This document shows, in pieces, positions 39,376-63,889 of a stretch of DNA of 64,000 nucleotides. How positions within the stretch are numbered: position 1 is the first letter of the stretch; every line of letters starts with the position of its first letter. The translations under genes were made by a program, and so were the position numbers. The notes under the pieces are model-generated. The model was not told where the DNA came from and did no database searches. It saw only the letters and a program-made list of their open reading frames with translations. This stretch comes from Kiritimatiellota bacterium (lineage in GTDB: Bacteria; Verrucomicrobiota; Kiritimatiellia; JAAZAB01), in assembly GCA_026398415.1 (NCBI GenBank), contig JAPLSY010000084.1, positions 94,709 through 158,708 on the forward strand. Direction: 5' to 3'.

Positions 39376-39378
39376 AAT

Positions 39379-41785: not shown

Positions 41786-42017
41786 GCCGGACGACAGACG
41801 ACAGCCCTGATCAGAAGGACGACGGAACGGAGAAGACGGCCTGCCCGCAGAAACCTTGGCGAAGGCGGGACGATGGATGTAGGAGTCGATCCCAGATCGG
41901 CGATTGTAAGAGAACAGAACATAGGCAAAGCGGAGAACAGAAATCAGAATCATTCTTCCCGACCTCTCGGAGAGTCGGGATGACTTCTGACTTCTAATTA
42001 ACAGGAGGGTTCACACC

Positions 42018-42811: not shown

Positions 42812-44818
42812 ATGTCATACTTTAATTTTGCATCGCGCATCAAATCCAAGCGGATTTTACCGATCGTCGTCATTACTTGCCTGATCCTGTGCGGTGGCAT
42901 CCTGACGGGCGCCCGGATCCACGGGTTTTCCTTCGCCTCCTGGCATTCCGCCATTGACGGCTCACCGCACCGCGAAGTGTTCTTTAGCAAGGTTAATCGC
43001 TACCGGACGGATGATTGGATTGTGATGTTGCCGCACATGCTGGCCCAGCGGGCCGACCAGCCGCCCTTTGCCGCTGAAAATCGGCTGATCGGCGACGGGC
43101 ACTACAACATGCTGATCACCTGCGCGGCGCCGGCGCGCGATCCGATGGTGTTATTCCGTCCCCAGGTGTGGGGTTATTTCATTTCCGGCGATATCGGCAT
43201 GGCGTTCCAGTGGTGGTTCTATGTGTTCGGCACCTGGATCGCCGTGTGGCTGGTCCTGCGCCGGTTGACGGGCAACGACGAATGGACTTCCGCATGCGGC
43301 GCTACGGCATTGCTTTTCTCGCCGTTTTTTCAGGCCTGGTCGCTCAACTGCACGCCGACGGTAATTTTCGCCTGCGGCACACTCTTTTCCCTGGCACAAC
43401 TAAGGACGACCCGATCAACCTTTCAGCTTCTGCTGTCAGCCGTTCTCCTGGCCTGGTTCGGAATGGCGTTTTTATTGACCTTCAATTACCTGCCATATCT
43501 GGTCACCCTGTTTTACTGCATCGTCTTTGTTTTTACCGGGATGGCGGTCAGGGCCCATGGCCCCGGCCCTGCCGATAACCGGGAAGCGCCGCGACGCCAT
43601 ATTCATTGGCCCAGCAGGACTCGCTGGGCTTGCGCCCTGTTAGCCGTTCTCTGCATTCTCGGCCTGGGCGCGTACATGGCCGCGAGCAACTGGGAAACGA
43701 TTGCCATCATTCGGAACAGCGATTACCCCGGCCAGCGTTTATCGTCCGGCGGCGATCAAACAATCTGGCATCTTTTTCGGGGTAATGTCCTCAGCATTAA
43801 ACCGCCACCGGCATGGCGGGATTTCAATCCGTGTGAAGGCGCCGCTTTTTTTCTGGTTTTTCCGCTGGTAGTTGCCGCCCTGCTCCGGGACTGGTGGCGC
43901 ACCCGCAAACCACCCCATGCCCTGCTCCTCGGGATTGCAGGTTACATTACCTTCCTGTTGTTCTGGAACCTGACCGGGTTTCCGGAACTATTGTCGCGCT
44001 GGACGCTGATGAATCGAGCGCCGCCCTTTCGGACGCTGATTGGACTGGGAATCGCGGATATTCTTTTATTGTCAGTTTATGTTTCCCACCGGCAACAATT
44101 GACTCCGGCATCCCATAAGGATTACGTTACGCCTTGGATCGTCAGCGCGCTCTGGATTACGTTTCATGTGGTGTTAGGAATCAAGTTTTCCAGGTACTTC
44201 CCGGATTATTCCATCAATACGGCGCTGATCGGCGGCCTTTTTGCGATGGCCCTGGCGCCCCTGCTCTACCTGGCGCCGCGCCTGGTCCTCCCGGCCATCA
44301 TGCTCGCCGCTATCCTGACCACCTATGACGTTAATCCTCTGGCCCGCGGCGGCACGACCTTCATTCAGGAGAACCCGCTCTCCCAGAAAATCCGGACAAT
44401 CGATCAGGAAACTAAAAATCAAGGCCACCAGCCGGTTTGGATTGCCTATGGCGACGCAGCATTGCCGAACCTGTTTCGCATGATCGGGTCGCGCGCGCTC
44501 AACGGCGTGCATGCCTATTCCCAGTTTGAACTGTGGAAAACGCTGGACCCGGAAGGCCAGTCCCGGCCGGTATATAACCGCTATGCCCATGTTGTCTTTG
44601 AAGTACCGCCCGTGCCGGACGATTTTAAAATCAATCTTGTTTATAATGATAACGTCGCCGTCGACCTGCACCCGGACAACCCGCGGTTTGCCGCCCTGAA
44701 CGTGGATTACCTTCTTTGCCTGGACAATCAAGTTGAATCGCTTGACCGCGTAGCGAAGCTGAAAAAGATTTATTCCTACGCCGGCAGGCACATTTACCGG
44801 GTTGAGCACGCGCCATAG
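42812..44818 (+). CDS. Large polytopic membrane protein, GT-C-like putative glycosyltransferase
   Basis: 668 aa with more than 12 TM helices, an acidic 'DD' in the first extracytoplasmic loop, and a soluble C-terminal domain. It lies upstream of the polyprenyl-P sugar synthase gene. Confidence 0.35.
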   Translation: MSYFNFASRIKSKRILPIVVITCLILCGGILTGARIHGFSFASWHSAIDGSPHREVFFSKVNRYRTDDWIVMLPHMLAQRADQPPFAAENRLIGDGHYNMLITCAAPARDPMVLFRPQVWGYFISGDIGMAFQWWFYVFGTWIAVWLVLRRLTGNDEWTSACGATALLFSPFFQAWSLNCTPTVIFACGTLFSLAQLRTTRSTFQLLLSAVLLAWFGMAFLLTFNYLPYLVTLFYCIVFVFTGMAVRAHGPGPADNREAPRRHIHWPSRTRWACALLAVLCILGLGAYMAASNWETIAIIRNSDYPGQRLSSGGDQTIWHLFRGNVLSIKPPPAWRDFNPCEGAAFFLVFPLVVAALLRDWWRTRKPPHALLLGIAGYITFLLFWNLTGFPELLSRWTLMNRAPPFRTLIGLGIADILLLSVYVSHRQQLTPASHKDYVTPWIVSALWITFHVVLGIKFSRYFPDYSINTALIGGLFAMALAPLLYLAPRLVLPAIMLAAILTTYDVNPLARGGTTFIQENPLSQKIRTIDQETKNQGHQPVWIAYGDAALPNLFRMIGSRALNGVHAYSQFELWKTLDPEGQSRPVYNRYAHVVFEVPPVPDDFKINLVYNDNVAVDLHPDNPRFAALNVDYLLCLDNQVESLDRVAKLKKIYSYAGRHIYRVEHAP

Positions 44819-44910
44819 GGAAGGCTTCGGCGTTGACATGCCACCCCTTTTTGTATAACTGTGTAATCTTGAAGTTTGTTGCCAAATCAATCCCGTCGGA
44901 ACCGCCGCAT

Positions 44911-46686
44911 ATGGACGATCAACAGTCAACACGTTGGATCTCCGAGTGGATGATCAAAGGCCATCGGCGTACGATAACGCTGATTGCGGCGCTGGCGTTG
45001 GCCGCACCAGCGGCGTTAGCCGCCGCGACCTGGATGCTTTACGGTTCGGCCTGTTCGGACTGGTGGTATGCCGATGATGCCGCTCACCTGTGGTTTGTGA
45101 TGCGGCACGATCAAATCTGGCAGTACTTTGCAGTGCCGGAAGTCAGCCGGGCAGCCTCAGCCCATTTGGTGCCCTGGGTCTTCATGCTCTATCGGCTGAT
45201 CTATGTTTGCTGCGGCATGGAACACCCGGGCACCGCGTATGCGTTGCAGTTGTTGTCCCTGTTTGCAGTGGCCTGGATGACCCGGGTCCTGTTGGGATTA
45301 TGGGTCTGCACGGCTTGGGCCTGGTTGGGGGCGTTCCTTTTTCTGTTGGGCGCGCCCGTAATGCACGTGGCCCACGAGCTCATGACCGTCAATTATGTGC
45401 AAGGCCTGTTTTTCGCGCTCATCGCCGCCTATGGATTTGTGCGCGCCATCAGGAACCTGACCTGGTGGCCGGCGGTGGCCGGCGGGTTTTGTTACCTGCT
45501 TGCCGTCACGGCCAAAGAAATCTATGTGCCGCTGCCGATGCTTCTGCTGTTTCTGCCGGAGAACACATGGAAACAGCGCGGCCTGAAGGCTCTGCCGTTC
45601 TTAATCGTGCTGACGGCCTATGTGCCGTGGCGCTGGTTCATGCTGGACACGTTAGTCGGGGGCTATCAGTCGCAAACCTCCGGCCCGGGCATCGTCCCGG
45701 TCTGCCAGGCATTACGGCACGTTCCGGTCATGATCCTGGGCGCCGACGGTTTGGGTTGGGGCGTCATGATCGCCGGCTTGCTCGGCCTGATGTTGCTTGT
45801 CGGGTTGAGCTGGCGGAAGATTGTCTTTGGACTGGTTGGCCTGTGCGCATTGCTGGGGCCGCTGGTGCCCTTGACGCAATTTCCCGGCTTGGTCTCCCCG
45901 GGACGCTATCTGTTTGTGGTGTGGTGGGGTATGACGGCCGCATGTGTGCTGGTCATGGAACGGCTGAGTTGCGGTCGCCATTGGCGGGGCCATCGCTGGC
46001 AGGGCCATCGTTGGCTGGCATGGGTCGCGCTCGCGTTGTGGGTGGCGATCAGCCTGGCCGCCGGCCGTGAAATGCGGCGGGAACAGCGCCAATCTCAATC
46101 CTGGATCGACAGCTATGAAACCCAGGGACGGTTTTTGTGGGCCGCTGCGAGCGACCGGATTTTTCTGATCCGCCCACCCTTTCATGTTGCGCGCTTCGTG
46201 GCGGCCATTAAGCAGAAACTCGCCGGCGCGGGATCGGCGCCGATCGTCATCGATGACCAGGCCGATTTGGAAATCCAGACCCGCCTGGGCCTGGTGGCCG
46301 GTGCGGCGCGTTCCAATGCCACGGTCTGGGCGTACAACGAATCGGGGCGCCGGATGGAAGAGATCACGGGAGAATTCCGGCAACAGCAGGCTGAATCTCC
46401 CGCCCGGGTCCAGGAATCGGCCCTGCGGATTGACTTGCAGTTTGAGAGGCAGGCCATGCGCTGGCGGTTCGGTCCATACGAGCAAGGGAACTATCTGATG
46501 GTGCGCCTGGCCGAAGGCCGCATAATTGACCGGATTCACTTTTTACCGGAGGGTCAGCGGGACGCCACGGGCGGCGGCGTCTTTGACTTCTTTCTGCGCT
46601 ACGACTCGCCCGAAGGCTGGACGACCTATTCGCCCGTGTTGCGGTTCGATCGCCAGCAGGGCGGCGTGGTATGGCGCCGGGATTGA
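44911..46686 (+). CDS. Large polytopic membrane protein, GT-C-like (ArnT/PMT-like) putative glycosyltransferase
   Basis: More than 11 TM helices, 'YADDAAH' in the first loop, and a C-terminal soluble domain. Assigned from context with the ArnC-like GT2 genes. Confidence 0.35.
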   Translation: MDDQQSTRWISEWMIKGHRRTITLIAALALAAPAALAAATWMLYGSACSDWWYADDAAHLWFVMRHDQIWQYFAVPEVSRAASAHLVPWVFMLYRLIYVCCGMEHPGTAYALQLLSLFAVAWMTRVLLGLWVCTAWAWLGAFLFLLGAPVMHVAHELMTVNYVQGLFFALIAAYGFVRAIRNLTWWPAVAGGFCYLLAVTAKEIYVPLPMLLLFLPENTWKQRGLKALPFLIVLTAYVPWRWFMLDTLVGGYQSQTSGPGIVPVCQALRHVPVMILGADGLGWGVMIAGLLGLMLLVGLSWRKIVFGLVGLCALLGPLVPLTQFPGLVSPGRYLFVVWWGMTAACVLVMERLSCGRHWRGHRWQGHRWLAWVALALWVAISLAAGREMRREQRQSQSWIDSYETQGRFLWAAASDRIFLIRPPFHVARFVAAIKQKLAGAGSAPIVIDDQADLEIQTRLGLVAGAARSNATVWAYNESGRRMEEITGEFRQQQAESPARVQESALRIDLQFERQAMRWRFGPYEQGNYLMVRLAEGRIIDRIHFLPEGQRDATGGGVFDFFLRYDSPEGWTTYSPVLRFDRQQGGVVWRRD

Positions 46687-46848: not shown

Positions 46849-47817
46849 ATGAAATCAGTAACTATCGTCATTCCCGTGTTGAATGAAGCAACCGCGATCG
46901 CCGCGAATATGCGTCAAATCATGGAGTCCGTAAAGTCGTTAGGCGCTACGGTTGATGCCCGGATTCTCGTGGTGGACGACGGCTCCCGCGACGACACGGT
47001 GCGCATCGTACAGCGTCTGGCGGAAACCGAGCCGACCGTCCAGGTGCTGGCCCTCACGCGGAACTTTGGGAAAGAGGCGGCCATCCACGCGGGCTTGGAT
47101 CACGCATCGGGCGACGCCGTGATCGTCATGGACTGCGACCTGCAACATCCGCCGGCCTTGCTGCCCCGAATGATCCAGCTCTGGCGCGATGGTCTTGATG
47201 TTGTGGAGGCGTATAAAATCGATCGGGGCGGCGAGTCATGGCTCTCCGGACTTTTGGCCGGCGGGTTCTATGCGCTCTTCAACCGGCTGGCGGGATTCGA
47301 TCTGCGGAATCATTCTGATTTCAAGTTGCTGGACCGCAAGGTTGTGGAAGCCTATTGCCGATTGCCGGAGCGGGAACGATTCTTCCGGGGCCTGATCACG
47401 TGGATGCACTTCCCCTCCGCGCGCATCCCGTTTGAGGTTCCGGAGCGGAGCGGCGGCGGCTCGGCGTGGTCCCGGCTGCGCCTGGTCAAATATTCATTGA
47501 CCATCATTTCGTCCTTCTCCTCATTGCCGCTGCAGGTCGTGGGCTGGGCGGGCGCCTTGACGCTCTGCATCAGCCTGGTACTGGGCACAAAGGCGCTGTA
47601 TGACAAGTTCATGGGCCACGCCATTGACGGATTTGCCACCGTCATTTTGCTGGTCCTGATTCTCGGCAGTATCATCATGCTCAGCATCGGCGTCGTGGGC
47701 AATTATATCGCCCGTATTTACGAGGAAGTCAAGCGCCGGCCAAGCTATCTCATTGACCTGCGCCGCAGTTCCGTTACGGAACGGCAGAGCGCCGACCGGG
47801 CCGGGGAGCCTGAATGA
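46849..47817 (+). CDS. Polyprenyl-phosphate sugar synthase (GT2; ArnC/GtrB/DPM1-like)
   Basis: 'VTIVIPVLNE...ILVVDDGSRDDT...ALTRNFGKEAAIHAGLDHASGDAVIVMDCDLQHPP' plus two C-terminal TM helices, the ArnC/GtrB architecture. Confidence 0.75.
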   Translation: MKSVTIVIPVLNEATAIAANMRQIMESVKSLGATVDARILVVDDGSRDDTVRIVQRLAETEPTVQVLALTRNFGKEAAIHAGLDHASGDAVIVMDCDLQHPPALLPRMIQLWRDGLDVVEAYKIDRGGESWLSGLLAGGFYALFNRLAGFDLRNHSDFKLLDRKVVEAYCRLPERERFFRGLITWMHFPSARIPFEVPERSGGGSAWSRLRLVKYSLTIISSFSSLPLQVVGWAGALTLCISLVLGTKALYDKFMGHAIDGFATVILLVLILGSIIMLSIGVVGNYIARIYEEVKRRPSYLIDLRRSSVTERQSADRAGEPE

Positions 47818-48653
47818 GTCTGTCCGGCAACATCCAACTGGAAACGGCGGATTGTCCATTATGCGGCGCCGGCAACGGCAAGCCCACGCGGTTCGACTTT
47901 ACGCCCTATAAACTGGCGCGCTGCGCGGAATGCGGTTTGTATTTTTGCGCCACCCGCTTGAAGCCCGAGGATGTGGCCAAGCTTTATGCGCATCACGACT
48001 ATTTTGAGGGACAGGGCTATGATTCGTATGCCGCGCAGGAACCGGCCTTGCGGCTGACCTTTCGCCGGTTTTTAAAAAAACTGAACGCAGCCTTTCCCCT
48101 GCAGGGCGCGCTACTCGAGATTGGTTGCGGTTATGGCTACCTGCTGGATGAAGCCCGGCCATATTTCCAGCAACGTGTCGGCACGGATTTTTCTCCCCAG
48201 GCAGTCAAGCAGGCCGCCACCTATGGAGCCAAAATCTATCAGGGCGATATTGACGGACTGCCCCGTGACGACCGCTATGATTGCATCATCCTGGCGCACG
48301 TTATCGAGCATGTCTATCGGCCGGTTCCGTTGTTGCGCGCCATCCGGGACAAATTAAAGGCGGGCGGCGTGGTGGCCGTGGCCACGCCAAATATCGGCAG
48401 TCTCTGGTTCCCAATCATGGGTCGAAAATGGGCATCGTTCAAGATTCCGGAACATGTGGCTTTTTATGAACGGCCAACGCTGAACCGCTTGCTGGCATCG
48501 GCCGGATTCAGGGACATTCGCACCATTCCCTATTTACATGCGTTTCCGTTAGCGCTCATTGCGAACAAACTGGCGGCACGCATGCCGGCCAGGATGGGGC
48601 GGTGGTCGTGTTGGATTCCAGGGACAACCATTGCCATGGCAGCACGCAACTAA
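47814..48653 (+). CDS. Class I SAM-dependent methyltransferase
   Basis: Motif I 'LLEIGCGYGYLL', a post-I acidic residue, 'DCIILAHVIEHV'. An N-terminal Cys4 zinc ribbon (CPLCG...CAECG). Confidence 0.65.
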   Translation: MSLSGNIQLETADCPLCGAGNGKPTRFDFTPYKLARCAECGLYFCATRLKPEDVAKLYAHHDYFEGQGYDSYAAQEPALRLTFRRFLKKLNAAFPLQGALLEIGCGYGYLLDEARPYFQQRVGTDFSPQAVKQAATYGAKIYQGDIDGLPRDDRYDCIILAHVIEHVYRPVPLLRAIRDKLKAGGVVAVATPNIGSLWFPIMGRKWASFKIPEHVAFYERPTLNRLLASAGFRDIRTIPYLHAFPLALIANKLAARMPARMGRWSCWIPGTTIAMAARN

Positions 48654-48756: not shown

Positions 48757-49734
48757 ATGAAGATTCTTGTTACGGGAGCAACGGGCTTTCTTGGAGCGCA
48801 TGTTGTGCGGCGATTGATCGAACGCCGCGACGATGTGCGTTGCCTTATCCGCCAGGACAAGGCCTGTCTTCCGGAGGGTACTCAGCGCCTGATCGGGGAC
48901 ATTCTGGATCCGGAGGTCCTGGGCAAAGCCATGGAGGATGTGGACGTCGTCTGCCATTGTGCGGCCCTGGTGGCGGGACGGCACAAGCGGGACGATTTCT
49001 TCCGTGTGAACGTAAGGGGGTTGGAAAACATGCTCAACGCCGCCGCCCGTGCAAACGTGAAACGGTTTATTCACATCAGCACGTGCAGTGTGCTGGGCAG
49101 TGGCGTCCATCTCGACACTGACGAGCGCGCGCCTTTGATCGAGTCCGGACACCCCTACCGCGACTCGAAAGTCGCGGCCGAAAGGTTAATCAAGGCAAGC
49201 TCGTATCGTTCCTCGGTGGCCATCATCAGGCCCGGCTGGATCTACGGACCGGGAGAACGGAACGTATTGCCGATGATCCTCGAGCGATTAAAAACGGGCA
49301 AGATGTATGTCATCGCGGGGGGCAGGAAACTGGTCCATACTGTTTTTGTCGGCCACGTGGCCGACGCCGTTGTGGCCGCTGCAGACAAGCCTGCCGCCGC
49401 GGGTCAAGCATACAACCTGACGGATGGCCGGCATTTAACCATGATGGAGTTTCTGGAGACCCTGCGTCGCGCGGCGGCATTGAAACATGGCATCCGGAAC
49501 ATGCCTTATCCGGCGGCCTATGCCGCCGCGCTGGCAGGTACCGCGTGGGAGACTTTGTCAGGCCGGGAAGCCCTTTTCGACTTGCCCAAGTTAAGAACGG
49601 TCATGACCGACTTCAGCTTCTCCATTGAAAAGGCCAAACGGGACCTGGCCTATTCCCCGGCCGTATCAACCGAGGAAGGCTTGAGATTGTTTGTCGAAGA
49701 ATACGAAGCGCGCTTGAAGAAAGGCGGCCGCTGA
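48757..49734 (+). CDS. NAD-dependent sugar epimerase/reductase (extended SDR)
   Basis: 'ILVTGATGFLGAHVV' and the catalytic 'YRDSK'. Confidence 0.75.
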   Translation: MKILVTGATGFLGAHVVRRLIERRDDVRCLIRQDKACLPEGTQRLIGDILDPEVLGKAMEDVDVVCHCAALVAGRHKRDDFFRVNVRGLENMLNAAARANVKRFIHISTCSVLGSGVHLDTDERAPLIESGHPYRDSKVAAERLIKASSYRSSVAIIRPGWIYGPGERNVLPMILERLKTGKMYVIAGGRKLVHTVFVGHVADAVVAAADKPAAAGQAYNLTDGRHLTMMEFLETLRRAAALKHGIRNMPYPAAYAAALAGTAWETLSGREALFDLPKLRTVMTDFSFSIEKAKRDLAYSPAVSTEEGLRLFVEEYEARLKKGGR

Positions 49735-49735
49735 T

Positions 49736-50800
49736 ATGAATGCGATGGCTTCAGGAATGCTGAACATGGCCGGCATGGGCCTGCGCATGGTCGCGCACGG
49801 TTATGTTTCACCCCGGAAAGTTTTGAATTTCATCCGCTGCCTGGCGCACCCATACATGGGCAATGTGATTTCGACAGGCTACCCCCCGGCATTGGCGATC
49901 GACCCTTCGGCCACATGCAATCTGGGTTGTTTCGCCTGCCCGGCGGGTAACGCCGCGCCCACTCCGCTCAAGAATATGAACTTCGCCGACTACACGAAAC
50001 TTATTGACGAAGTCGGCGCTTACGCATTGATTACATTCCTCTACGTCACCGGGGAACCCTTTATGAACAAGGACCTGGCGCGTTATATCGAGTATGCGCA
50101 CCGCAAACGCATCTATACCGTGGTCAGCACTAACGGGCATTTCATCAATACCCCGGAACAAGCGGAAAAAATCGTCAACTCCGGCCTTGACGATTTGATC
50201 ATCACCATTTCGGGATTATCGCAGGAGGTTTACGAAAAATATCATCGGCACGGCCATATTGCCACGGTCCTGAAAGGACTTGATAATCTCGTGGCCGCGC
50301 GAATCAGACTGGGGAAAAAATCACCCAAACTGACTATTCGGTATGTTGAGTTCGCGTACAACCTGGAAGAGCGTGATAAAGCCCGGGCGCATTTTATGAA
50401 ATCCGGCGCCGATGCGTTTACAGCCCGGGCGGCACGTGGCAATATCGCGCCCGGCATGGTGCCCCAGGAATTGAAGGGCGTCATGGCTGAATACAAGCAA
50501 CAATTTATCGCCCCCGGCAATGTGGCGGCCAAGCAACCGCAATACCGGCGCTGCCTCTGGCCGTGGCTGATTGCAGTGGTGAACTGGGATGGCGTGTTAA
50601 CGCCCTGCACGCAATATCCCTGGGTAAAAGAGGAGAACACCCAGAATTATCTCGGCAACGTCTTCAAGGAGGGGAGCTTCCAAAAAGCATGGCAGGGCCG
50701 GAGATTGATGGATTACAGGACACACTTGCTGGATAAAAACCTGATTCCCGATTCCTGCAAGAACTGCATCCGTTCCGTAGGATTCGGCGATGACACTTGA
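49736..50800 (+). CDS. Radical SAM enzyme with C-terminal Cys-rich (SPASM/twitch-like) domain
   Basis: 'CNLGCFAC' (CxxxCxxC), 'FLYVTGEPFMN', and C-terminal cysteines (C..C..CKNC). Confidence 0.65.
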   Translation: MNAMASGMLNMAGMGLRMVAHGYVSPRKVLNFIRCLAHPYMGNVISTGYPPALAIDPSATCNLGCFACPAGNAAPTPLKNMNFADYTKLIDEVGAYALITFLYVTGEPFMNKDLARYIEYAHRKRIYTVVSTNGHFINTPEQAEKIVNSGLDDLIITISGLSQEVYEKYHRHGHIATVLKGLDNLVAARIRLGKKSPKLTIRYVEFAYNLEERDKARAHFMKSGADAFTARAARGNIAPGMVPQELKGVMAEYKQQFIAPGNVAAKQPQYRRCLWPWLIAVVNWDGVLTPCTQYPWVKEENTQNYLGNVFKEGSFQKAWQGRRLMDYRTHLLDKNLIPDSCKNCIRSVGFGDDT

Positions 50801-50834: not shown

Positions 50835-51578
50835 CTATTCCCCGAACCATTTATGATAGTAGAGCAGGCAGGAGCGCGTAATGAAGCCGCTGCGTTGCAC
50901 CATGCGTTGGGTGGGCACGTTGCGGCCTTGGGTCGCCAGCCAAACGTGCTCGATGTTGTGACGCACGAACCAGTCCAGTCCGGCGCGGAATAATTCCTGG
51001 CCCACGCCGGTTTTGCGGGCAGTCTCGCGTACCCCGGTTAGTTCATACCGGGCTTCCGGCTTGTCCTTGCTGAGCACCCCCGTGATGTACCCGACGACTT
51101 CATTGTTTTTTTCGGCCACCAGGGCAAGCTCGACGCCGCCTTCCAAGCTTTTCTTGACCCAGGTGGCGTAATAGGCCTGACATTTTTCTTCCGAAAAATG
51201 TTCGTCAAAGTAATAACGCGAATCGACATAACTGGTGCGCGCAATATCCTGGCAAATGGGAACGTCGGCAGGTTTAGCGCCACGGATCAGCACATCCGCG
51301 GCGGTTCTCGGCCGGGTATCGGGATTCCAATCGCGCAAGGACCGTTCCACATTCAGGCGGATTTCGACCAGGCGAAAGCCGTTGCTTTCAGCCTGACGGA
51401 TGGTCTGGCGGTCTTCCGCGCCGGCTATAAAATACAGGCATGCGATGCGTTGGTTTGCGCACCAGTTGTAAATTTCCTTGATAATCCGGCTGTCCAGGGC
51501 AGGGACCGCCGCCCGCGCAATACGAAAGCCGAAGAAATCAGTATCCCATTGAAGAAATTGGCAGGGTTCACTCGTCAT
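50835..51578 (-). CDS. GNAT N-acetyltransferase, WecD (dTDP-4-amino-4,6-dideoxyhexose N-acetyltransferase)-like
   Basis: Collinear with E. coli WecD landmarks: N-terminal 'W.TDFFG', 'SR(Y/F)', 'YA.W', and C-terminal 'RVATQ.(G/R)N..A...Y...GF'. Confidence 0.5.
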   Translation of the reverse strand: MTSEPCQFLQWDTDFFGFRIARAAVPALDSRIIKEIYNWCANQRIACLYFIAGAEDRQTIRQAESNGFRLVEIRLNVERSLRDWNPDTRPRTAADVLIRGAKPADVPICQDIARTSYVDSRYYFDEHFSEEKCQAYYATWVKKSLEGGVELALVAEKNNEVVGYITGVLSKDKPEARYELTGVRETARKTGVGQELFRAGLDWFVRHNIEHVWLATQGRNVPTQRMVQRSGFITRSCLLYYHKWFGE

Positions 51579-51831
51579 CTTGGCGGTTTTCTCCTGAGCA
51601 GGCGTCTCATTGCACGTATTTTACCCGCATCATTCTTGGTTGCTAATACGCCTTTCCGCCTTAAGCGGATCCGCATCGGGCGGAAAAGCGTGATAAATTT
51701 CCTCGTTTTCCTGTCGTTTGTCAAGACATCCGTTGAATATTGACTTTCGTTTTTGATTGAATTCAGGTTGTTATTGCCTCCCGGCACGGTTGTGTTAAAC
51801 TGCAGCCGGTTTTCATAGAATTATAAGCATA

Positions 51832-52827
51832 ATGGAATCCGAACCTGTCAGCAACAGTTTGCCCGCAACCACCGCATCCGTCAGCGTGGTGGTGCCGGTA
51901 TATCGTTCCGAAGCGTCCCTGCGGCCGCTGGTAGAACGAATGCTGGCCGTGTTGCAGGGGCACCCGGCCAAGTTCGAAATCATCCTGGTCAACGACGGCA
52001 GTCCGGATCGCTGTTGGTCCTTGATCGAGGACCTGGCTCGCGCCAACCCGCGCATCCGGGGTATTAACCTCATGCGCAATTTCGGCCAGCAAAACGCCCT
52101 GCTCTGCGGTATCCGCGCGGCACGGTTCGACGTGACGGTCACCCTGGATGCGGACCTGCAGCATCCGCCCGAGGAAATCCCGAAGTTGCTGTCCAAACTG
52201 GCGGAAGGCTTTGATGTGGTTTATGGCGTGCCCGCCGAGGTAAAGCACAGTTTATTCCGCCGCCTGGCTTCGCGCCTGATGCGGGTTGTCGCGCTCCAGG
52301 CCCTGGGCATTGCCAACGCATCGCAAATCAGCGCCCTGCGGGCCTTTCGCACGCAATTGCGCGATGCCTTTGCGGAGTTCCAGGGTCCGTTTGCATCCAT
52401 TGACGTCCTGCTCACGTGGGGCACAATGCGCTTCACTTCCGTCCTGGTGCGGCATGATGCGCGCATCCACGGATGCTCCAGTTATTCGCTGGCCAAGTTA
52501 TTGGCGAATTGCTTTGACGTTATTACCGGCTTTTCGACGCTGCCTCTGCGACTGGCCAGTTGGATCGGATTCTTTTTCACGCTTTTCGGCATCGGCATCC
52601 TGATCTACGTGGTCAGCCTCTACCTGATCATGGGCTACAGCATACCCGGCTTCCCCTTTCTGGCTTCCATTATCGCCATTTTTGCCGGGGCCCAGCTTTT
52701 TGCCCTGGGCATTATCGGCGAGTATATTTCGCGGATGCATTTTCGGCTCATGGACCGTCCAACCTACGTCGTGCGCCAGACAGCGGAATACGTTGATACG
52801 AAGCAAACGCCGACTTGTCCGCCATAG
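51832..52827 (+). CDS. Polyprenyl-phosphate sugar synthase (GT2; ArnC/GtrB-like), second copy
   Basis: 'VSVVVPVYRSE...ILVNDGSPD...NLMRNFGQQNALLCGIRAARFDVTVTLDADLQHPP' plus C-terminal TM helices. Confidence 0.75.
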   Translation: MESEPVSNSLPATTASVSVVVPVYRSEASLRPLVERMLAVLQGHPAKFEIILVNDGSPDRCWSLIEDLARANPRIRGINLMRNFGQQNALLCGIRAARFDVTVTLDADLQHPPEEIPKLLSKLAEGFDVVYGVPAEVKHSLFRRLASRLMRVVALQALGIANASQISALRAFRTQLRDAFAEFQGPFASIDVLLTWGTMRFTSVLVRHDARIHGCSSYSLAKLLANCFDVITGFSTLPLRLASWIGFFFTLFGIGILIYVVSLYLIMGYSIPGFPFLASIIAIFAGAQLFALGIIGEYISRMHFRLMDRPTYVVRQTAEYVDTKQTPTCPP

Positions 52828-52881
52828 CTTTTGAGCGACGGAGGAACGCCCAACCCTCCTACGCCCACATCCTGAGGAACA

Positions 52882-54309
52882 ATGCCAACGCCATTTCGAA
52901 TTATGCTGGTCAACGCGGTCGGAGCGTCTTCGTGGCTGGAACGCCGCCAGCCGATGCTGGGGCTCGGCTATCTCGCGGCCAGCGTTCGCCACGCCATCCC
53001 TGACACCCCCTTCGAATTCCGCGTCGTCGAAGAAAATGTCCAACAGGCGGCGGAGCAGTTCAACCCCCAGCTGGTCGGCATCAGCTTCGCCTCCCAAAAC
53101 ACAAAACTTGCCTTGCTTTATGCCGACGAATTCAGCCGCCGCGGCATTCCCGTCGTCATGGGCGGCGTGCACATTTCCGTCCTGCCCCGTTGTCTGCCGC
53201 AAAACGCGATAGCCGCCTGCCTGGGCGAGGGCGAGCAAACCTTCGTCGAACTGGTCAAGGCCGTCATGGGCGGTAAAACCGATGGTCAAACCCTGAAAAC
53301 GATCCCGGGCATCGCCTACTGGGAAGGAAATACACTTATACAGACCGCGAACCGGCCTTGCCTGGCCGACCTCGACACCCTGCCGTTACCGGACCGCAGC
53401 TTGTTCCCGATTTATAAGCACACCCACATCTTTACCTCGCGTGGATGTCCTTATCGGTGCGTATTCTGCGCCTCCTCGCGTTTCTGGGATAAGGTTCGCT
53501 TTCACTCCGCCGAATATATCGCCGATGAGATTGACCTGCTGGTCCGGCAATTCGGCGTGAACTTTATTTCATTTTATGACGACTTGTTTGTCGCCAAGAT
53601 TGAGCGGGCCGAGGCCCTGGCGCGCCTGCTGGAAAAACGCGGGTTGCTCAACAAAATCGGGTTCAGTTGCAATTGCCGCGCCAATCTGGCCAATCATGAC
53701 TTGGCTGCCCTGCTGGTGCGCCTGGGCATTAAATATGTTACCATGGGATTGGAATCCGGCGACGAACAAACCCTGCGTTATCTGAAAGGCGACAATGTGA
53801 CCGTCGCCCAAAACCGGGAGGCAATCCGCATTTTCAGGGAACACGGCCTGCGGATTAACGCGTACTTCATTATCGGCGCGCCCCGGGAAACCGGCGCCCA
53901 AATCATGAAAACCTACGATTTTATCCGGCAATCCAAGCCGGACCTGGTGGGCGTGAGTGTCCTGACTCCGTTTCCCGGCACGCCGGTCTGGGAATATGCC
54001 AAGGGCCGGAACCTGGTAGCGGATGAATCCTTTGACTGGACTAAATTAAATACCGGCGTTTACGACCATTCGGATAAATTTGTCCTGCTCTCCGAAGTGT
54101 TGACCCGCGCCGCATTCATCGGTTTTTATAAAAAAATGCAGCGTCTGCAATTCCGGCGGAACCTTATCGGTATTTGCCGCCATCCCATGCTCAACGACAT
54201 TGTCCTGATGCTGATTAATATTATCGCGCACCATTGCCGTCAGTGGTTGCACATCGCTGCGCGGCCCCAACCCCTGGCCGCAGAAAAGCCGGCGCCGGAT
54301 GCCGTATGA
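52882..54309 (+). CDS. Cobalamin-binding radical SAM enzyme (class B; putative C-methyltransferase or epimerase)
   Basis: N-terminal B12-binding Rossmann (LGLGYLAA...VGISF...VVMGGVH) and the radical SAM core 'SRGCPYRCVFC'. Confidence 0.7.
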   Translation: MPTPFRIMLVNAVGASSWLERRQPMLGLGYLAASVRHAIPDTPFEFRVVEENVQQAAEQFNPQLVGISFASQNTKLALLYADEFSRRGIPVVMGGVHISVLPRCLPQNAIAACLGEGEQTFVELVKAVMGGKTDGQTLKTIPGIAYWEGNTLIQTANRPCLADLDTLPLPDRSLFPIYKHTHIFTSRGCPYRCVFCASSRFWDKVRFHSAEYIADEIDLLVRQFGVNFISFYDDLFVAKIERAEALARLLEKRGLLNKIGFSCNCRANLANHDLAALLVRLGIKYVTMGLESGDEQTLRYLKGDNVTVAQNREAIRIFREHGLRINAYFIIGAPRETGAQIMKTYDFIRQSKPDLVGVSVLTPFPGTPVWEYAKGRNLVADESFDWTKLNTGVYDHSDKFVLLSEVLTRAAFIGFYKKMQRLQFRRNLIGICRHPMLNDIVLMLINIIAHHCRQWLHIAARPQPLAAEKPAPDAV

Positions 54310-54419
54310 CTCGTCAATCTAAAAACATAAAATCAGCGCTCCGCACTAAGCCGCGTGGCAAGCAAGTTCACCACGCCCGCAGCGCGGTGGCCCCGTTGCC
54401 GCAAACGGGGCATTCCGCC

Positions 54420-55568
54420 ATGACCCAGTCCGATTATGCCATCCCCTTTAATCGCCCCTGTTTTGTCGGCAACGAACAGGCTTACATGACCCGGGCCATC
54501 GCCAACGGCCAGATTTCGGGCGATGGCGCCTTCACGCGCCAATGCCATGCTTATCTTGAAAAAGCGCTTGGCGTACCCAAGGCATTATTGACCACCTCCT
54601 GCACGCACGCGCTGGAAATGGCGGCGCTCCTGCTCAATATCCAGCCCGGCGATGAAGTCATCGTGCCATCCTTCACTTTCGTTTCCACCGTCAACGCCTT
54701 TGTGCTCCGCGGCGCGCGCCCGGTGTTCGTTGATATCCGGCCGGACACGCTTAACCTGGATGAATCCTGCCTGGAGCGGCTGATCACGCCGCGCACCAAA
54801 GCCATCGTGCCGGTGCATTACGCCGGCGTGGGCTGCGAAATGGATGCCATTCTGGCTATCGCCGGAGCGCATGGCATTCCCGTGGTGGAGGACAATGCCC
54901 ACGGTCTGTTGGGCCGTTACAAGGGCCGCTGGCTGGGAACCTTCGGATGCCTGGCGGCCCAGAGCTTTCACGAAACCAAGAACTTTACCTGCGGTGAGGG
55001 TGGCGCCCTGCTGATTAACGACCCACGGTTCATCGAGCGGGCCGAAATCCTGAGGGAAAAAGGCACAAACCGCAGCCAGATGTTCCGGGGTCAAGTCGCT
55101 AAATACTCCTGGATTGACGTGGGTTCCAGCTACCTGCCCTCCGACCTGCTGGCGGCTTTCCTGCTGGCCCAGTTCGAGGCCCGGGATCATATTCAATCCG
55201 TTCGCCGGCGACTCTGGGATTTTTATGCCGCGCATTTGCGCGATTGGGCCGGCCGGCGCCACGTTGGCCTGCCGTCTGTCCCGGAGCATTGCGAACAGTC
55301 CTATCACATGTTTTATATGCTCATGCCATCGCTGGCCGCGCGGCAGGCGTTAATCGATCATCTGAAAACCAAGGGCATCCTGGCGGTCTACCACTACCTG
55401 CCTTTGCACCTCTCGGTTATGGGCCGCCGCTTTGACGGACGGACGGGCGATTGCCCGGTAACGGAATCGGTCAGCGACCGCCTGGTGCGCCTGCCGTTTT
55501 ATATCGGGCTGAGCAAAGCGGACCAAGCCCGCGTGGTGGCCGCGATTCTCGAATGCCCGGTGATTTAA
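54420..55568 (+). CDS. DegT/ArnB/WecE-family PLP aminotransferase (dTDP-4-keto-6-deoxyhexose 4-aminotransferase-like)
   Basis: Extensive collinear identity with E. coli WecE, recalled from memory: FTFVSTVNAFVLRGA.PVFVD(I/V)RPDT.N(L/I)DE; HYAGV.CEMD; FHETKN(F/Y)T.GEGGA.LIND; RAEI(L/I)REKGTNRSQ.FRGQV.KY.W.D.GSSYL.SDL.AA.L.AQ(F/L)EA; LRLP(F/L)(Y)..L. Confidence 0.8.
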   Translation: MTQSDYAIPFNRPCFVGNEQAYMTRAIANGQISGDGAFTRQCHAYLEKALGVPKALLTTSCTHALEMAALLLNIQPGDEVIVPSFTFVSTVNAFVLRGARPVFVDIRPDTLNLDESCLERLITPRTKAIVPVHYAGVGCEMDAILAIAGAHGIPVVEDNAHGLLGRYKGRWLGTFGCLAAQSFHETKNFTCGEGGALLINDPRFIERAEILREKGTNRSQMFRGQVAKYSWIDVGSSYLPSDLLAAFLLAQFEARDHIQSVRRRLWDFYAAHLRDWAGRRHVGLPSVPEHCEQSYHMFYMLMPSLAARQALIDHLKTKGILAVYHYLPLHLSVMGRRFDGRTGDCPVTESVSDRLVRLPFYIGLSKADQARVVAAILECPVI

Positions 55569-55577: not shown

Positions 55578-57257
55578 ATGGACCAATTCACTAAATGGAT
55601 CAATGCTTCCTGGCCGCTCTTCATTCTGAACGGGCTCTTCATCGGCATCGGTTTATCCTGGCTTTTCCTGATCCCCTACAACAATGCCCCCGACGAAAAC
55701 ACGCATTTCAAATACAGCGTTGAGTTCATTCTCACCCACCATCGCCTGCCGGTCTGGGGCGTGGATGATTTAAACCAGTTCCGTCACTCAATCGGTACTT
55801 ATAACCAGATGCCGGCGCTGAACTACGTGGCCGCCGCCGCCACCGCACATGCCGGCCACACGCTGTTTGGCATCGAGCCCTACCACGGCGCCCGGCTGGC
55901 ATCGTTAGCCTGGGGCCTGATTTTCATCAATGGCCTCTTTCTAACCATCAGGACACTGATTGATCGTCCGCTATCGTCGGCGATTGTCACGATGGCGTTC
56001 GCCTTCATTCCCCAGGTCCTATTCATCTTTTGTTATGTGAACGCGGACGCCTACGCGCTGGGCATCACCGCCCTGCTGGCGTATACGCTGGCGCGATTCT
56101 GGAAAACGCCATCCAATGCCGCCCTGGTCATGGTCGGCTTGGCCGGGGGCCTGCTCTTTTCGGCCAAATATAATTATTTTATCTTCATCCCTTTTCTGGC
56201 GGCCGGTTTCAGCTACCTGGCTTATCGCGGTCGCCTGCCGTGGTCTGCCGTGTTCCGCATGGCCCTGGCCGTGGCCTGCGGCGCCATCCTGATTTCCGGA
56301 TTCTGGTATGCGCGTAATTACTGGCTTTACGGGACGCCCATGCCTGTGCTCCTCGGCGAGGAACGTCTGGCACAATTAGGGGTCCTGCGCGAGGCGGTTC
56401 CCGTGAATCATGGGTTTTCCCGCGCATCCCTCCTCTGGCTGGTTCAGCAGAAATTTGTGACGACCACGTTCGCTTCGTTCTTCGGCCTGTTCGGCTATCT
56501 GGATGTCGGGTTCTGGCCGGAAGTGTACGCCCTGCTCCGGATCATCATTCCCGCGCTGGGCGCCCTGTTTCTATTTGAACTCCTGATGACGCGCGATCGC
56601 CCCGCCGAGATCGCCGCCCTGTGGCTGAGCGCCTTAATGCTGGCGGTATTGGGCATGCATGTGTGGATGAGTCTGTCCAACAATTTCCAGCCCCAAGGCC
56701 GGTATTATTTCACCGTGCTGGTGCCGATGGCGGTATTTTTGGGATGGACCGCCCGGCGCCAGCGTCGATTGCTGAAATACGCCGTAGCCCTGATGGTGGT
56801 GACCGGCGCGCTGATGGTCCAGGCAACCATGCTTTTCGCCCAAACGTACGGGGAGCCCCTGGTTTTTGCGGTCTTCTGGGATGGACCGGCGGGCCGCTGT
56901 GCGGCGATCAGCCGGGCGGAGCGCGTGGGAAAAAACTGTATCCGGGTTTCCTGCGCGCCCGACGACGCCCACGATATTACCCTGGTGCGCGTGGATTTTC
57001 CCAAGCGGATCCTGGGGCGTTACCGGGATTTCACACTGACCTTCAATGCCGAAGGCGACAAGCAGGTTTTTAGCGGGACCAATCTGCCGGATCCGCAGTG
57101 CGTGGATATAACATACGACCCAAAACTGAAGGCCTTTGACGCGATCGGACCCAATCCTTCCGCATCCTTTACGCTTTCCCCTGCCCCAACACCAATCCGG
57201 GCCATTACCCTCGATACGGCCGTCGAACATCGCCGCTTGCGCGACCCGGTATTCTGA
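55578..57257 (+). CDS. Large polytopic membrane protein, GT-C-like putative glycosyltransferase (third in cluster)
   Basis: About 13 TM helices, and 'NAPDENTHF' in the first periplasmic loop (the DE motif position of ArnT/PMT-type GT-C enzymes). C-terminal soluble domain. Confidence 0.4.
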   Translation: MDQFTKWINASWPLFILNGLFIGIGLSWLFLIPYNNAPDENTHFKYSVEFILTHHRLPVWGVDDLNQFRHSIGTYNQMPALNYVAAAATAHAGHTLFGIEPYHGARLASLAWGLIFINGLFLTIRTLIDRPLSSAIVTMAFAFIPQVLFIFCYVNADAYALGITALLAYTLARFWKTPSNAALVMVGLAGGLLFSAKYNYFIFIPFLAAGFSYLAYRGRLPWSAVFRMALAVACGAILISGFWYARNYWLYGTPMPVLLGEERLAQLGVLREAVPVNHGFSRASLLWLVQQKFVTTTFASFFGLFGYLDVGFWPEVYALLRIIIPALGALFLFELLMTRDRPAEIAALWLSALMLAVLGMHVWMSLSNNFQPQGRYYFTVLVPMAVFLGWTARRQRRLLKYAVALMVVTGALMVQATMLFAQTYGEPLVFAVFWDGPAGRCAAISRAERVGKNCIRVSCAPDDAHDITLVRVDFPKRILGRYRDFTLTFNAEGDKQVFSGTNLPDPQCVDITYDPKLKAFDAIGPNPSASFTLSPAPTPIRAITLDTAVEHRRLRDPVF

Positions 57258-61086: not shown

Positions 61087-61602
61087 TCATACCGGCGCCC
61101 CAGCGGCCATGGTAATCGTGCGCTTGTCAAGGTCCGGCCCGGTTTCAAAATAAATGTGCATGGTATTTTCCGGGAGCCAGCTGCCAGCACGCTCGGCCCA
61201 TTCGATCACGGTGATTCCTTCCGTATCGAGGTAATTTTCGAAATCAATGCTTAACAGTTCATCCGGATCGCTGATCCGGTAAAGATCCATGTGAACCAAT
61301 GGACACCGGCCGCGGTATTCGTTCACAATCGTAAAGGTGGGGCTGGTCACGGGTTGCCGGACACCCAGCGCCCGGGCCAAACCCTGGACAAAACAAGTCT
61401 TGCCGCTGCCCAGTTCCCCGTGCAAAGCCAGCACGGCGCCAATCTTTCCGCCGGAGGCGGCCTGCCCGAGTTCGGCCAGGGATCCGCCTCCGGCCGTCGC
61501 TAAAGCTATGGCGGGCACGCTGGCGGACAATTCTGCAACGAGGGCCGCGGCCAAAGCCTGGGTCTCCTCCGGACTCTTAGAAATGACTTTCCGCGTCTTC
61601 AT
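61087..61602 (-). CDS. tsaE: tRNA threonylcarbamoyladenosine biosynthesis protein TsaE
   Basis: P-loop 'GELGSGKTCFVQGLARALG' and 'VTSPTFTIVNEY'. Confidence 0.8.
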   Translation of the reverse strand: MKTRKVISKSPEETQALAAALVAELSASVPAIALATAGGGSLAELGQAASGGKIGAVLALHGELGSGKTCFVQGLARALGVRQPVTSPTFTIVNEYRGRCPLVHMDLYRISDPDELLSIDFENYLDTEGITVIEWAERAGSWLPENTMHIYFETGPDLDKRTITMAAGAPV

Positions 61603-61659
61603 CCGATCATCGCACAAAATTGTTTCCTACAGTCTACGGCCTACAGCCTTACAGCCTAT

Positions 61660-62655
61660 TTATCTAAAATGTTCATAGCCGGTCGCTTTCAGCCGCACCT
61701 TTCGCCCCCGCGCATCCACGCACTCAATGACATTACGGCGATCTGTGATCCGGCCGATGTATGCACATGGCGTCTTAAAAGTTTTTCGCCAAGCCCGGAT
61801 CAGCTTTGCCGCGTTGGCCGGCAAAACCGTAAACAACAATTCGTAGTCCTCGCCATCGCAAAAGGCATGCCGCAGAACTGTCTGCCGCGATGCCGATTTC
61901 TTGATCGCCGACGCCAGGGGAATTGACGTTAAAAACAGTTCGGCCCCCACACGGCTTTGCCGGATGAGATGCCGGAGATCGGTCGCCAATCCATCACTGA
62001 GATCAATCATGGCGGTGGCCCAGCGCCGGCTTTGGAGCCAGCGGCCTTCCGCCAGGCGCGGCTGAAACGCCAGGTGTTTTCCATGGCGACTGCCTCCAAG
62101 CGTGCCGGTGACGAACAGGTAATCGCCTACCCGCGCGCCGCCCCGCAAAACGGCCTGCCCCCGCGGCACGCGGCCCACGCAAAACACGTGCGCCTCCAGG
62201 CACGGCCCGCGCGCCACATCGCCGCCGACAATGGCCACCCGCCAATGGCGGGCCAGCTTACTCAGCCCGGAATAAATGCCTGTCACCCGCGCAACGGACG
62301 TCGAAGCCGGCACCACGAGATTTACGAGCGCCCAGAGCGGCTCCCCACCCATGGCGGCGATATCGCTCAGCACGCGGGCCAGCGCTTTATGGCCCACCGC
62401 CGCGCCGGGCGTCGAGCGGGTAAAATGCACGCCCTCAATCACGGGATCGGATTTGAGCAGGTAATCATAGCGCGCATCGTCCGCCGGTCGCACCACGGCA
62501 CAATCATCACCCGGCCCCACTACCACATCGGCGCGCTCCGGCAGGGCGCGAACCAAGCGCTGAATCATACCCAGTTCGCCAAGGGTGCCCACTGTTTGTA
62601 TGCGTTTTTTCACCATGGGACACGTTCTGTCGTTGTCCGATTCAACGCCGATCAT
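61660..62655 (-). CDS. thiL: Thiamine-monophosphate kinase
   Basis: AIR-synthase-related fold. 'GDDCAVV', 'IEGVHF', and 'DLSDGLATDL' near the C-terminus. Confidence 0.8.
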   Translation of the reverse strand: MIGVESDNDRTCPMVKKRIQTVGTLGELGMIQRLVRALPERADVVVGPGDDCAVVRPADDARYDYLLKSDPVIEGVHFTRSTPGAAVGHKALARVLSDIAAMGGEPLWALVNLVVPASTSVARVTGIYSGLSKLARHWRVAIVGGDVARGPCLEAHVFCVGRVPRGQAVLRGGARVGDYLFVTGTLGGSRHGKHLAFQPRLAEGRWLQSRRWATAMIDLSDGLATDLRHLIRQSRVGAELFLTSIPLASAIKKSASRQTVLRHAFCDGEDYELLFTVLPANAAKLIRAWRKTFKTPCAYIGRITDRRNVIECVDARGRKVRLKATGYEHFR

Positions 62656-62711
62656 GGATCGGCTCCTACAAGCTAGAGGTCAGAGTCCGTTGTCCCACCT
62701 TCGCCCTTCGC

Positions 62712-63833
<1,122 letters not shown>

Positions 63834-63889
63834 AACATTCCTAAGCATACAAGAGCTTGGTACTTTATCCGCCTCGGGCGGATGTAACT

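Follow-up and report, generated by a model that had tools for sequence, protein, structure and literature searches.

What role do homologs of WecE and WecD, two enzymes of the route to the enterobacterial common antigen (ECA) in Enterobacterales, where WecE uses a sugar bound to deoxythymidine diphosphate (dTDP) (PMC7439462), play in a genome of the Planctomycetes-Verrucomicrobia-Chlamydiae (PVC) group? This question is raised by the interval 50835-55568 of a 64,000-nucleotide (nt) stretch of Kiritimatiellota DNA (hereafter the window), which holds four open reading frames (ORFs). On the minus strand lies a two-domain, WecD-like protein of the GNAT family (247 amino acids (aa), 50835-51578), a predicted N-acetyltransferase of nucleoside diphosphate (NDP)-4-amino-4,6-dideoxyhexose, which is separated by a divergent intergenic spacer of 253 bp (51579-51831) from an operon on the plus strand. 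The operon begins with a predicted polyprenyl-phosphate glycosyltransferase of the ArnC/GtrB type (GT2; 331 aa with C-terminal transmembrane (TM) helices, 51832-52827). It continues with a B12-binding radical SAM protein (B12-rSAM; 475 aa, 52882-54309), a candidate for accessory tailoring, and a WecE-family sugar 4-aminotransferase of the DegT type (382 aa, 54420-55568), whose predicted substrate is dTDP-4-keto-6-deoxy-D-glucose, and runs on into the gene for a GT-C fold glycosyltransferase; the gaps between these plus-strand genes measure 54, 110 and 9 nt.

The original prediction described the aminotransferase and the GNAT as a WecE/WecD pair outside the ECA context. We found that this pair is part of a cassette with the GT2 that recurs across phyla, a point absent from that prediction. 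With moderate confidence, we propose that the cassette belongs to an Arn-like three-component pathway, in which a polyprenyl-phosphate-linked 4-acetamido-4,6-dideoxyhexose would be made for extracytoplasmic transfer to an envelope acceptor.

A GT2-GNAT-WecE cassette shared by several phyla

Using a GNAT-family profile, 80 loci from at least six phyla were recovered from species-representative genomes, and their genes were mapped by tblastn. By hand count, 44 loci belong to Chloroflexota (mostly Anaerolineae), 16 to Acidobacteriota, 12 to Verrucomicrobiota and two each to Kiritimatiellia and Bradymonadales, the others being singletons; the cultured Longilinea arvoryzae KOME-1 (Anaerolineae) carries the cassette. 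Among the 76 loci with room for the neighbour in question, an ArnC-like GT2 ends at most 400 nt upstream of the GNAT and in the same direction in 61, and in 52 the start of a WecE orthologue (identity of 50% or more, median 70%) lies at most 1.2 kb downstream. Both neighbours are found together in 45/72 loci. Loci in which the GNAT is only 31-45% identical still conserve WecE (63-78%) and the GT2 (50-61%), and the remaining flanking genes differ completely between phyla. In about 20 loci, WecE is followed by a methyltransferase of the Methyltransf_23 type. A search from the GT-C end agrees with the search from the GNAT end, because the GT-C orthologues of three further PVC loci (L088-L090) all follow the same cassette. 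Literature searches returned no description of this cassette. While its parts are ordinary, their combination seems to represent a previously undescribed form of envelope glycosylation by way of a lipid carrier.

Based on its sequence, the aminotransferase (54420-55568) is assigned to the WecE family. Its BLASTP alignment with WecE of E. coli K-12 (NC_000913.3) is collinear, extends over 372 aa with a single gap and shows 56% identity (E 5e-150); the motif of the pyridoxal phosphate-binding lysine (SFHETKN) is kept, as is VVEDxAxG with Gln replaced by His. Both NCBIfam models for WecE cover residues 8-379 and score above their cut-offs (NF008687: 566 bits, cut-off 375; TIGR02379: 530 bits, cut-off 435), compared to 219 bits for ArnB, 215 for PseC (cut-off 423) and 143 for DesI. 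Likewise, among PDB sequences WecE (4piw) reached 447 bits and ArnB 196. The expectation that this enzyme is of the WecE type and not of the ArnB/PglE type was thus borne out, its best match being WecE and ArnB scoring far lower. The NF008687 cut-off is leaky, since it is also passed by the aminotransferase of a pseudaminic acid (Pse)-like cluster with a PseG fusion (L094; 401 bits, and 351 on TIGR02379, below the cut-off of 435). Scores for the aminotransferases of the cassette range from 505 to 566 bits with the two WecE models and from 205 to 217 bits with the PseC model. An in-frame upstream extension to 54234 would overlap the radical SAM gene and is probably not translated, because the homologues comprise 379-384 aa.

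The GNAT (50835-51578), located 2.8 kb from WecE in the window, was predicted to be a WecD homolog. This held in that WecD is its nearest characterised relative by profile, sequence and fold, and did not hold at the level of the equivalog: the WecD models are its top NCBIfam matches, with 79.8 bits for NF008212 (cut-off 219) and 56.2 bits for TIGR02382 (cut-off 195), and the BLASTP alignment with E. coli WecD covers 178 aa, of which 20% are identical (E 3e-8). The NF008212 match spans the full protein (residues 7-236 against model positions 8-224 of 232). An alignment of the GNAT, 18 homologues and E. coli WecD shares landmarks in both domains, namely L-W-[DE]-x-x-FFG at the N-terminal end, GF-x-LVE, D-[IV]-P, SR[FY], Y..W, G-x-G-x-EL and ATQ-G-N, and the acetyl-CoA motif R188-x-x-G191-x-G193 is invariant. 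The protein shows the two-domain architecture of WecD, in which an N-terminal domain precedes a C-terminal GNAT domain carrying this motif. Its AlphaFold model, computed from the family alignment (predicted local distance difference test, pLDDT, 92.5), matched WecD (2fs5_A) as top PDB fold in Foldseek over 247 columns (E 4.8e-15, TM-score 0.77/0.85, root-mean-square deviation 2.8), followed by tandem GNATs with TM-scores of 0.6-0.7. Overall, these data point to a WecD-like enzyme below the level of the WecD equivalog.

The protein belongs to a large clade separate from WecD, with 912 representatives of 50%-identity clusters in the GNAT profile family at E<=1e-30. Fusions of a PseG-like and a WecD-like part (557-581 aa, P0319 and similar) fall within this family; in the one context that was fetched (L094, 5924-9716), the P0319 fusion adjoins NeuB, a gene of the CMP-sugar synthetase type (CTP_transf_3) and a WecE-like aminotransferase. 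Because such fusions occur in nonulosonic-acid-type clusters, the family would seem to acetylate NDP-4-amino-4,6-dideoxyhexoses generally, and not dTDP-Fuc4N (4-amino-4,6-dideoxygalactose) alone. Long GNAT proteins were also considered as Rosetta-stone fusions of GT2 and GNAT, but most of them turned out to be PseG-like::GNAT fusions instead. In the one GT2::GNAT case, P0432, whose GT2 part is 49% identical to that of the window, an Arg-rich junction replaces the transmembrane helices, and the apparent fusion probably arose from a frameshift or an error in gene calling.

The GT2 (51832-52827) aligns over its full length with the PDB sequences of the solved enzymes ArnC (181 bits) and GtrB (154 bits). 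Its top NCBIfam match is the ArnC model; with 207 bits against an equivalog cut-off of 529, it is not ArnC itself. The metal motif DADLQH and the ArnC residues D48, N77, R137, R205 and S210 are kept, and the median TM count of the GT2 cluster is two, in line with the predicted function as a polyprenyl-phosphate glycosyltransferase. Among the cassette GT2s, ArnC E19 is replaced by Ser in 46/50 sequences, with a Glu one position after the equivalent site, and R128 by Pro in 52/55, while the other ligand residues are kept. These changes may relate to a different donor; we draw no conclusion from them as to dTDP versus uridine diphosphate (UDP).

Membrane proteins, accessory genes and lineage history

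The gene next to WecE (55578-57257, plus strand) encodes a 559-aa protein of the PMT_2/GT39 kind. Pfam PMT_2 matches with 30.2 bits (cut-off 26.1), and an identical protein is named "glycosyltransferase family 39 protein" by NCBI. Its AlphaFold model (pLDDT 88) ends in a beta-sandwich (residues 429-554), and all 19 Foldseek matches at E<=0.001 are GT-C enzymes, the best being ArnT (5f15; E 1.7e-5, TM-score 0.41). D39-E40 after the first transmembrane helix is invariant in 26 homologues. The protein is predicted to transfer the lipid-linked sugar to its acceptor. In L088, a metagenome-assembled genome (MAG) of Lentisphaerae, the GT-C orthologue is 62% identical, along with WecE at 82% and the GT2 at 68%; in L089 and L090, from two other MAGs, the values are 43-45% for GT-C, 69-71% for WecE and 61-65% for the GT2. 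The gene order in all three is GT2, zero to two copies of a B12-rSAM, GNAT, optionally a methyltransferase, and DegT, with the GT-C gene directly after; tsaE-thiL adjoins as in the window. One GT-C homologue, P0170, is annotated as GtrA-like (PF04138), which could mean a flippase fused to a transferase.

Two further large polytopic membrane proteins (42812-46686, plus strand) are candidates for additional GT-C enzymes. According to Pfam, the 668-aa protein contains DUF7657 and DUF7654 with a weak PMT_2 match, and the 617-aa protein has no family; crude TM counts are nine and seven, respectively. An orthologue of the DUF7657 protein heads the syntenic cluster of L088. Across the collection, 45/78 loci have large polytopic ORFs no more than two genes away from the cassette, and such ORFs occupy 19.6% of the cassette-flanking positions, compared to 8.9% overall (binomial p 1.6e-8, uncorrected for phylogeny). 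Of ten flanking membrane proteins scanned, three match PMT_2 and seven have no family. A hidden Markov model (HMM) of the window GT-C family detected no relatives among the flanking membrane proteins of other phyla (four matches, two of them trivial), so outside the PVC lineages the GT-C linkage is based on crude TM counts and a few PMT_2 matches. In the Anaerolineae loci L009-L028, the cassette is flanked by one to four tandem paralogues of a polytopic protein of about 680 aa with no Pfam match, in a conserved neighbourhood of alaS ... ruvX-mltG and a protein of about 510 aa matching Baseplate_J.

Upstream of the GNAT, a second polyprenyl-phosphate GT2 of the PgfS/GtrB kind (46849-47817, plus strand; NCBIfam PgfS 248 bits, cut-off 500; ArnC 138 bits; motif DCDLQH) probably supplies a parallel lipid-linked sugar donor, and L089 and L090 carry such a second GT2 as well. 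It is followed by a SAM-dependent methyltransferase (47814-48653, plus strand; Pfam Methyltransf_23), a possible sugar-tailoring enzyme; about 20 loci have homologues (24-29% identical) that directly follow or adjoin WecE or the GNAT. The genes that follow (48757-50800, plus strand; NCBIfam and Pfam), a short-chain dehydrogenase/reductase (SDR) and a radical SAM/SPASM enzyme, form a lineage-specific insertion. For the SDR (48757-49734), OleD and HpnA are the top-scoring models, and LegB (109 bits) and PseB (46 bits) match weakly. With 27% identity to RffG (RmlB), it is a generic SDR and not RmlB; it reads STCSV, and RmlB-type 4,6-dehydratases carry a T-D-E motif.

The B12-rSAM (52882-54309) matches the Pfam domains B12-binding (52.6 bits) and Radical_SAM (85 bits) and stays below all NCBIfam cut-offs; its best models are BchE (152 bits), HpnJ (124) and PhpK (112), of which BchE and HpnJ are not methylases. 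Among PDB sequences, the non-methylating dehydratase AprD4 (69 bits) is the best match and scores above the methylases CysS, TsrM and TokK (24-35 bits). The C-methylation of the sugar by this enzyme that the original prediction raised goes further than these matches support. An orthologue occurs in one of the 80 GNAT loci (L008; 81% identical over the full length), wherever a source is named for close orthologues (78-100% identical) it is Kiritimatiellia, and the radical SAM proteins that occupy this slot in L088 and L089 show only about 27% identity. The B12-rSAM is thus a variable accessory, seen only in clusters of PVC lineages. Homologues of about 50% identity (L091, L092) stand in tandem sets of two to four beside GT2 (with DUF2304), DegT and SDR genes, and their neighbours also include ATP-grasp, acyltransferase_3 and methyltransferase genes. 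As GT2, DegT and methyltransferase genes again adjoin these homologues, the B12-rSAM clade can be regarded as glycan-associated.

The divergent orientation of the GNAT, which the original prediction had noted, is not shared by its relatives, as the gene is co-directional, and between or beside GT2 and WecE, in nearly all loci. This includes the closest relative, L008 (Kiritimatiellia; 80-89% protein identity). Compared to L008 (9741-10753), where the methyltransferase directly abuts the GNAT, the window shows an inverted GNAT and the inserted SDR and radical SAM/SPASM genes, neither of which is in L008. Three independent Logan assemblies (L001-L003) share the window layout, which is therefore not an assembly error. 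The window GNAT is 82% identical to that of an Anaerolineales (Chloroflexota) MAG and 22-26% identical to the WecD-like GNATs of L088-L090. Such a pattern points to replacement of the original GNAT by a horizontally acquired foreign copy, which then came to lie outside the usual slot. Given the inversion relative to L008 and the apparently foreign copy, the divergent orientation is probably a local accident of the lineage. A promoter and terminator scan of the 253-bp spacer gave nothing above chance, with one sigma-70-like site upstream of the GNAT start (minus strand, 51646-51618).

The chromosome around the cluster is ordinary. The GNAT and the GT-C protein each have an identical counterpart in an NCBI "Kiritimatiellaeota bacterium" MAG, which agrees with the predicted PVC origin; for the aminotransferase, looked up with two alternative starts, there was no identical record. 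The matches in Pfam, NCBIfam, PDB and by fold likewise substantiate the predicted setting among polyprenyl-phosphate GT2 and GT-C genes. The region is bracketed by a dcw cluster (rsmH, ftsI, murE, murF, mraY, murD, an unassigned 364-aa ORF and ftsW; 24270-36256) on one side and by tsaE-thiL-(IF-2B/MtnA-like) (61087-63848, with tsaE and thiL at 61-62.6 kb) on the other. Between the dcw genes and the cluster lie a 579-aa protein with two GT2 domains (37636-39375), a 329-aa ORF with no family match (within 37636-40368) and a pair of ORFs (40409-42770) which, judged from sequence alone, resembles NfeD and SPFH/band-7 proteins.

The proposed pathway and its alternatives

Starting from the observed families, folds, catalytic motifs and gene linkage, we infer the following route, including all substrates, the order of steps, the nucleotide, the stereochemistry at C4, the flippase and the acceptor. 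WecE would aminate an NDP-4-keto-6-deoxyhexose at C4, most likely dTDP-4-keto-6-deoxy-D-glucose provided by rmlA and rmlB elsewhere in the genome. The GNAT would then N-acetylate the amine with acetyl-CoA, yielding dTDP-Fuc4NAc (4-acetamido-4,6-dideoxygalactose) or its gluco epimer dTDP-Qui4NAc; the sequences would fit the galacto as well as the gluco form, and UDP as well as dTDP. At the cytoplasmic face of the membrane, the ArnC/GtrB-type GT2 would move the N-acetylated sugar onto polyprenyl phosphate, the lipid-linked sugar would be flipped across the membrane, and the adjacent GT-C enzyme would pass it to an extracytoplasmic acceptor. In PVC lineages, the slot between GT2 and WecE holds the B12-rSAM and the methyltransferase as additional tailoring enzymes, whose probable target is the sugar or its acyl group. 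The aminosugar must be N-acylated for ArnC to accept it (10.1101/2025.01.29.634835), and the presence of an N-acyltransferase in the cassette makes sense in this light.

Several observations weigh against this pathway. No rmlA or rmlB-grade gene was found in the window or the 80 loci, to which the search was confined, and about one quarter of the loci have no nearby WecE. As far as is known, the characterised members of the ArnC/GtrB family take UDP- or GDP-sugars, and a donor based on dTDP would be without precedent. Moreover, the WecE/GNAT pair can serve pathways derived from UDP-N-acetylhexosamine, given that the PseG fusions accompany an aminotransferase passing NF008687. The cluster contains no flippase gene of the GtrA, ArnE/F or MATE type, most flanking membrane proteins show no recognisable GT-C signature, and the fold similarity between the GT-C model and ArnT is modest at the TM-score given above. 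We put forward only tentatively, as a claim that may well fail, the more specific idea that a widespread module of ArnC-type GT2, WecD-like GNAT, WecE and GT-C makes polyprenyl-phosphate-Fuc4NAc/Qui4NAc from a dTDP-sugar. Such a module would contain the first dTDP-fed polyprenyl-phosphate glycosyltransferase and provide a new type of lipid-linked donor, whose sugar would decorate an envelope component in Anaerolineae, Acidobacteriota, Verrucomicrobiota and Kiritimatiellia, with the B12-radical SAM enzymes of PVC lineages alkylating the sugar or its acyl group.

The same lipid carrier could alternatively receive a UDP-derived sugar, an explanation we consider unlikely, though it deserves attention. 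Here, UDP-2-acetamido-4-keto-2,6-dideoxyhexose, formed from UDP-N-acetylglucosamine by a dehydratase of the PseB/PglF type, would give a bacillosamine-like 2,4-diacetamido-2,4,6-trideoxyhexose on polyprenyl phosphate. Such a route needs neither rmlA nor rmlB, of which none is linked, and would suit the UDP donors taken by ArnC and GtrB (10.1101/2025.01.29.634835). The PseG fusions within the GNAT profile, found in NeuB/CTP_transf_3 clusters with an aminotransferase that passes the NF008687 cut-off, and the weak LegB and PseB matches of the SDR point in the same direction. The SDR, however, is found neither in L008 nor in most other loci and reads STCSV in place of the T-D-E motif. The aminotransferase evidence also argues for the dTDP route, as the cassette enzymes reach 505-566 bits on the WecE models against 205-217 on PseC, the enzyme of the Pse-like cluster reaches only 401/351 bits, and E. 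coli WecE, with which the window enzyme shares 56% identity, uses a dTDP-sugar (PMC7439462). Slightly less probable still is a purely cytoplasmic use, in which the pair feeds dTDP-Fuc4NAc/Qui4NAc to a Leloir glycosyltransferase for an O-antigen, capsule or ECA-like unit linked to undecaprenyl diphosphate (Und-PP), with the GT2 and GT-C enzymes serving another sugar. WecE and WecD work in this way in Enterobacterales (PMC7439462), the double-GT2 protein at 37636-39375 would be at hand, and the loci with a low-identity GNAT and no adjacent GT2 (L081-L086, L051) resemble ordinary polysaccharide clusters. On the other hand, the cluster lacks WecF, Wzx, Wzy and an initiating transferase, as do the related loci, the GT2-GNAT-WecE adjacency persists across phyla despite wholly changed surroundings, and the search started from GT-C finds the same cassette.

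A true charge modification of the Arn type, in which the N-acetyl sugar is deacetylated and a cationic 4-amino sugar is placed on lipid A phosphates against cationic peptides, seems improbable. In its favour, no solved enzyme is closer to the GT2 than ArnC, the fold of the GT-C protein matches that of ArnT best, and the sequence of aminotransferase, acyltransferase, GT2 and GT-C mirrors ArnB, ArnA, ArnC and ArnT. However, an ArnD-type deacylase, ArnE/F, the ArnA formyltransferase and a sequence-level ArnT are missing from the window and from 83 related loci. Furthermore, 44 of the 80 loci are from Chloroflexota, mostly Anaerolineae, which are understood to lack lipid A; since the cassette is commonest there, lipid A is unlikely as general acceptor. 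We assign very little probability to a scenario in which the substrate of the GNAT is not the aminosugar but the acceptor, a small molecule or some protein, and the linkage of the GNAT to WecE is only historical. The failed WecD equivalog cut-offs, the 20% identity to WecD and the separate transcription of the GNAT in the window would fit such a role, while profile, sequence and fold comparisons all place WecD first, over both domains. In addition, the syntenic PVC clusters hold a very different WecD-like GNAT (22-26%) in the GNAT slot, which argues for selection keeping a WecD-like enzyme in the cluster.

If the proposed pathway is correct, the chemistry of WecE and WecD is not an enterobacterial speciality and forms the sugar-supply arm of a common, unstudied system of envelope decoration, which spans major phyla of soil, sediment and wastewater. 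A new lipid-linked donor and possibly a dTDP-using polyprenyl-phosphate glycosyltransferase would join the three-component repertoire. Longilinea arvoryzae KOME-1 offers a testable cultured carrier, and as E. coli makes dTDP-Fuc4NAc, the GT2 is open to a heterologous test. With regard to annotation, "WecE" equivalog calls by NF008687 and KEGG-style "WecD" names are no evidence of ECA.

Comparison with known systems

With the ECA route, the locus shares a WecE at 56% identity, a GNAT with the fold and motifs of WecD, and the predicted order of transamination at C4 followed by N-acetylation. When twelve proteins of the E. coli K-12 ECA cluster were compared to the window by tblastn, only WecE, a weak WecD, the generic SDR (RffG) and MraY (WecA) were found. 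WecF and WzyE gave no match in the window, WzxE, WzzE and WecB matched at chance level only, and RffH (RmlA) had no real match (best E 0.19). By the same method, none of the 80 loci showed RmlA, WecF, WzxE, WecA or an RmlB-grade gene. The original prediction was therefore right in placing the window outside an ECA setting (no wecA, wecF, wzxE or wzyE) and in stating that rmlA and rmlB are absent from it. The systems differ in that ECA assembles an Und-PP-linked repeat unit via WecF, with WecA, WzxE, WzyE, WzzE and linked rmlA/rmlB, whereas here, with none of these genes, a polyprenyl monophosphate is the predicted carrier, loaded by the GT2.

The resemblance to the pseudaminic acid enzymes PseC, PseH and PseG lies in the N-acetylation of an NDP-4-amino-4,6-dideoxyhexose and in the fusion of PseG to proteins of the GNAT profile in NeuB/CMP-synthetase clusters (L094). 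In contrast, the window has no PseB, PseG, PseI (NeuB) or PseF, and its aminotransferase scores 215 bits on PseC against 566 on WecE. The anthrose operon was considered as an analogue and set aside, because antB comprises at least about 450 codons compared to about 320 aa for a GtrB-type GT2.

Arn systems, too, pair a 4-aminotransferase with an enzyme that N-acylates the amine, and they have an ArnC-type GT2 for loading the N-acyl sugar onto undecaprenyl phosphate as well as a GT-C transferase. The window proteins, however, share only 34-35% identity with ArnB and ArnC, the formyltransferase of ArnA is replaced here by the GNAT, and ArnD deformylase, ArnE/F and a UDP-glucuronic acid decarboxylase are lacking; the Arn sugar is a pentose, and a 6-deoxyhexose is predicted here. 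When the E. coli Arn proteins served as tblastn queries, ArnD, ArnE, ArnF and ArnT had no match in the window or the 83 related loci. ArnA matched partially in five loci, none of them the window, and these matches are presumed to reflect its dehydrogenase/SDR half.

Three-component extracytoplasmic glycosylation is an established scheme, represented by GtrA/GtrB/Gtr*, CsbB/GtcA/YfhO, FlmF2/NaxD/FlmK and Citrobacter ORF12-15 (PMC11127046). Our literature searches found no 4-acetamido-4,6-dideoxyhexose donor, probably derived from dTDP, for such systems. They share with the locus studied here the co-encoded polyprenyl-phosphate sugar synthase and GT-C enzyme. What sets the present cluster apart, next to the missing linked flippase gene, is that it brings along its own sugar-tailoring enzymes, WecE and the GNAT, joined in some lineages by the methyltransferase and radical SAM proteins.

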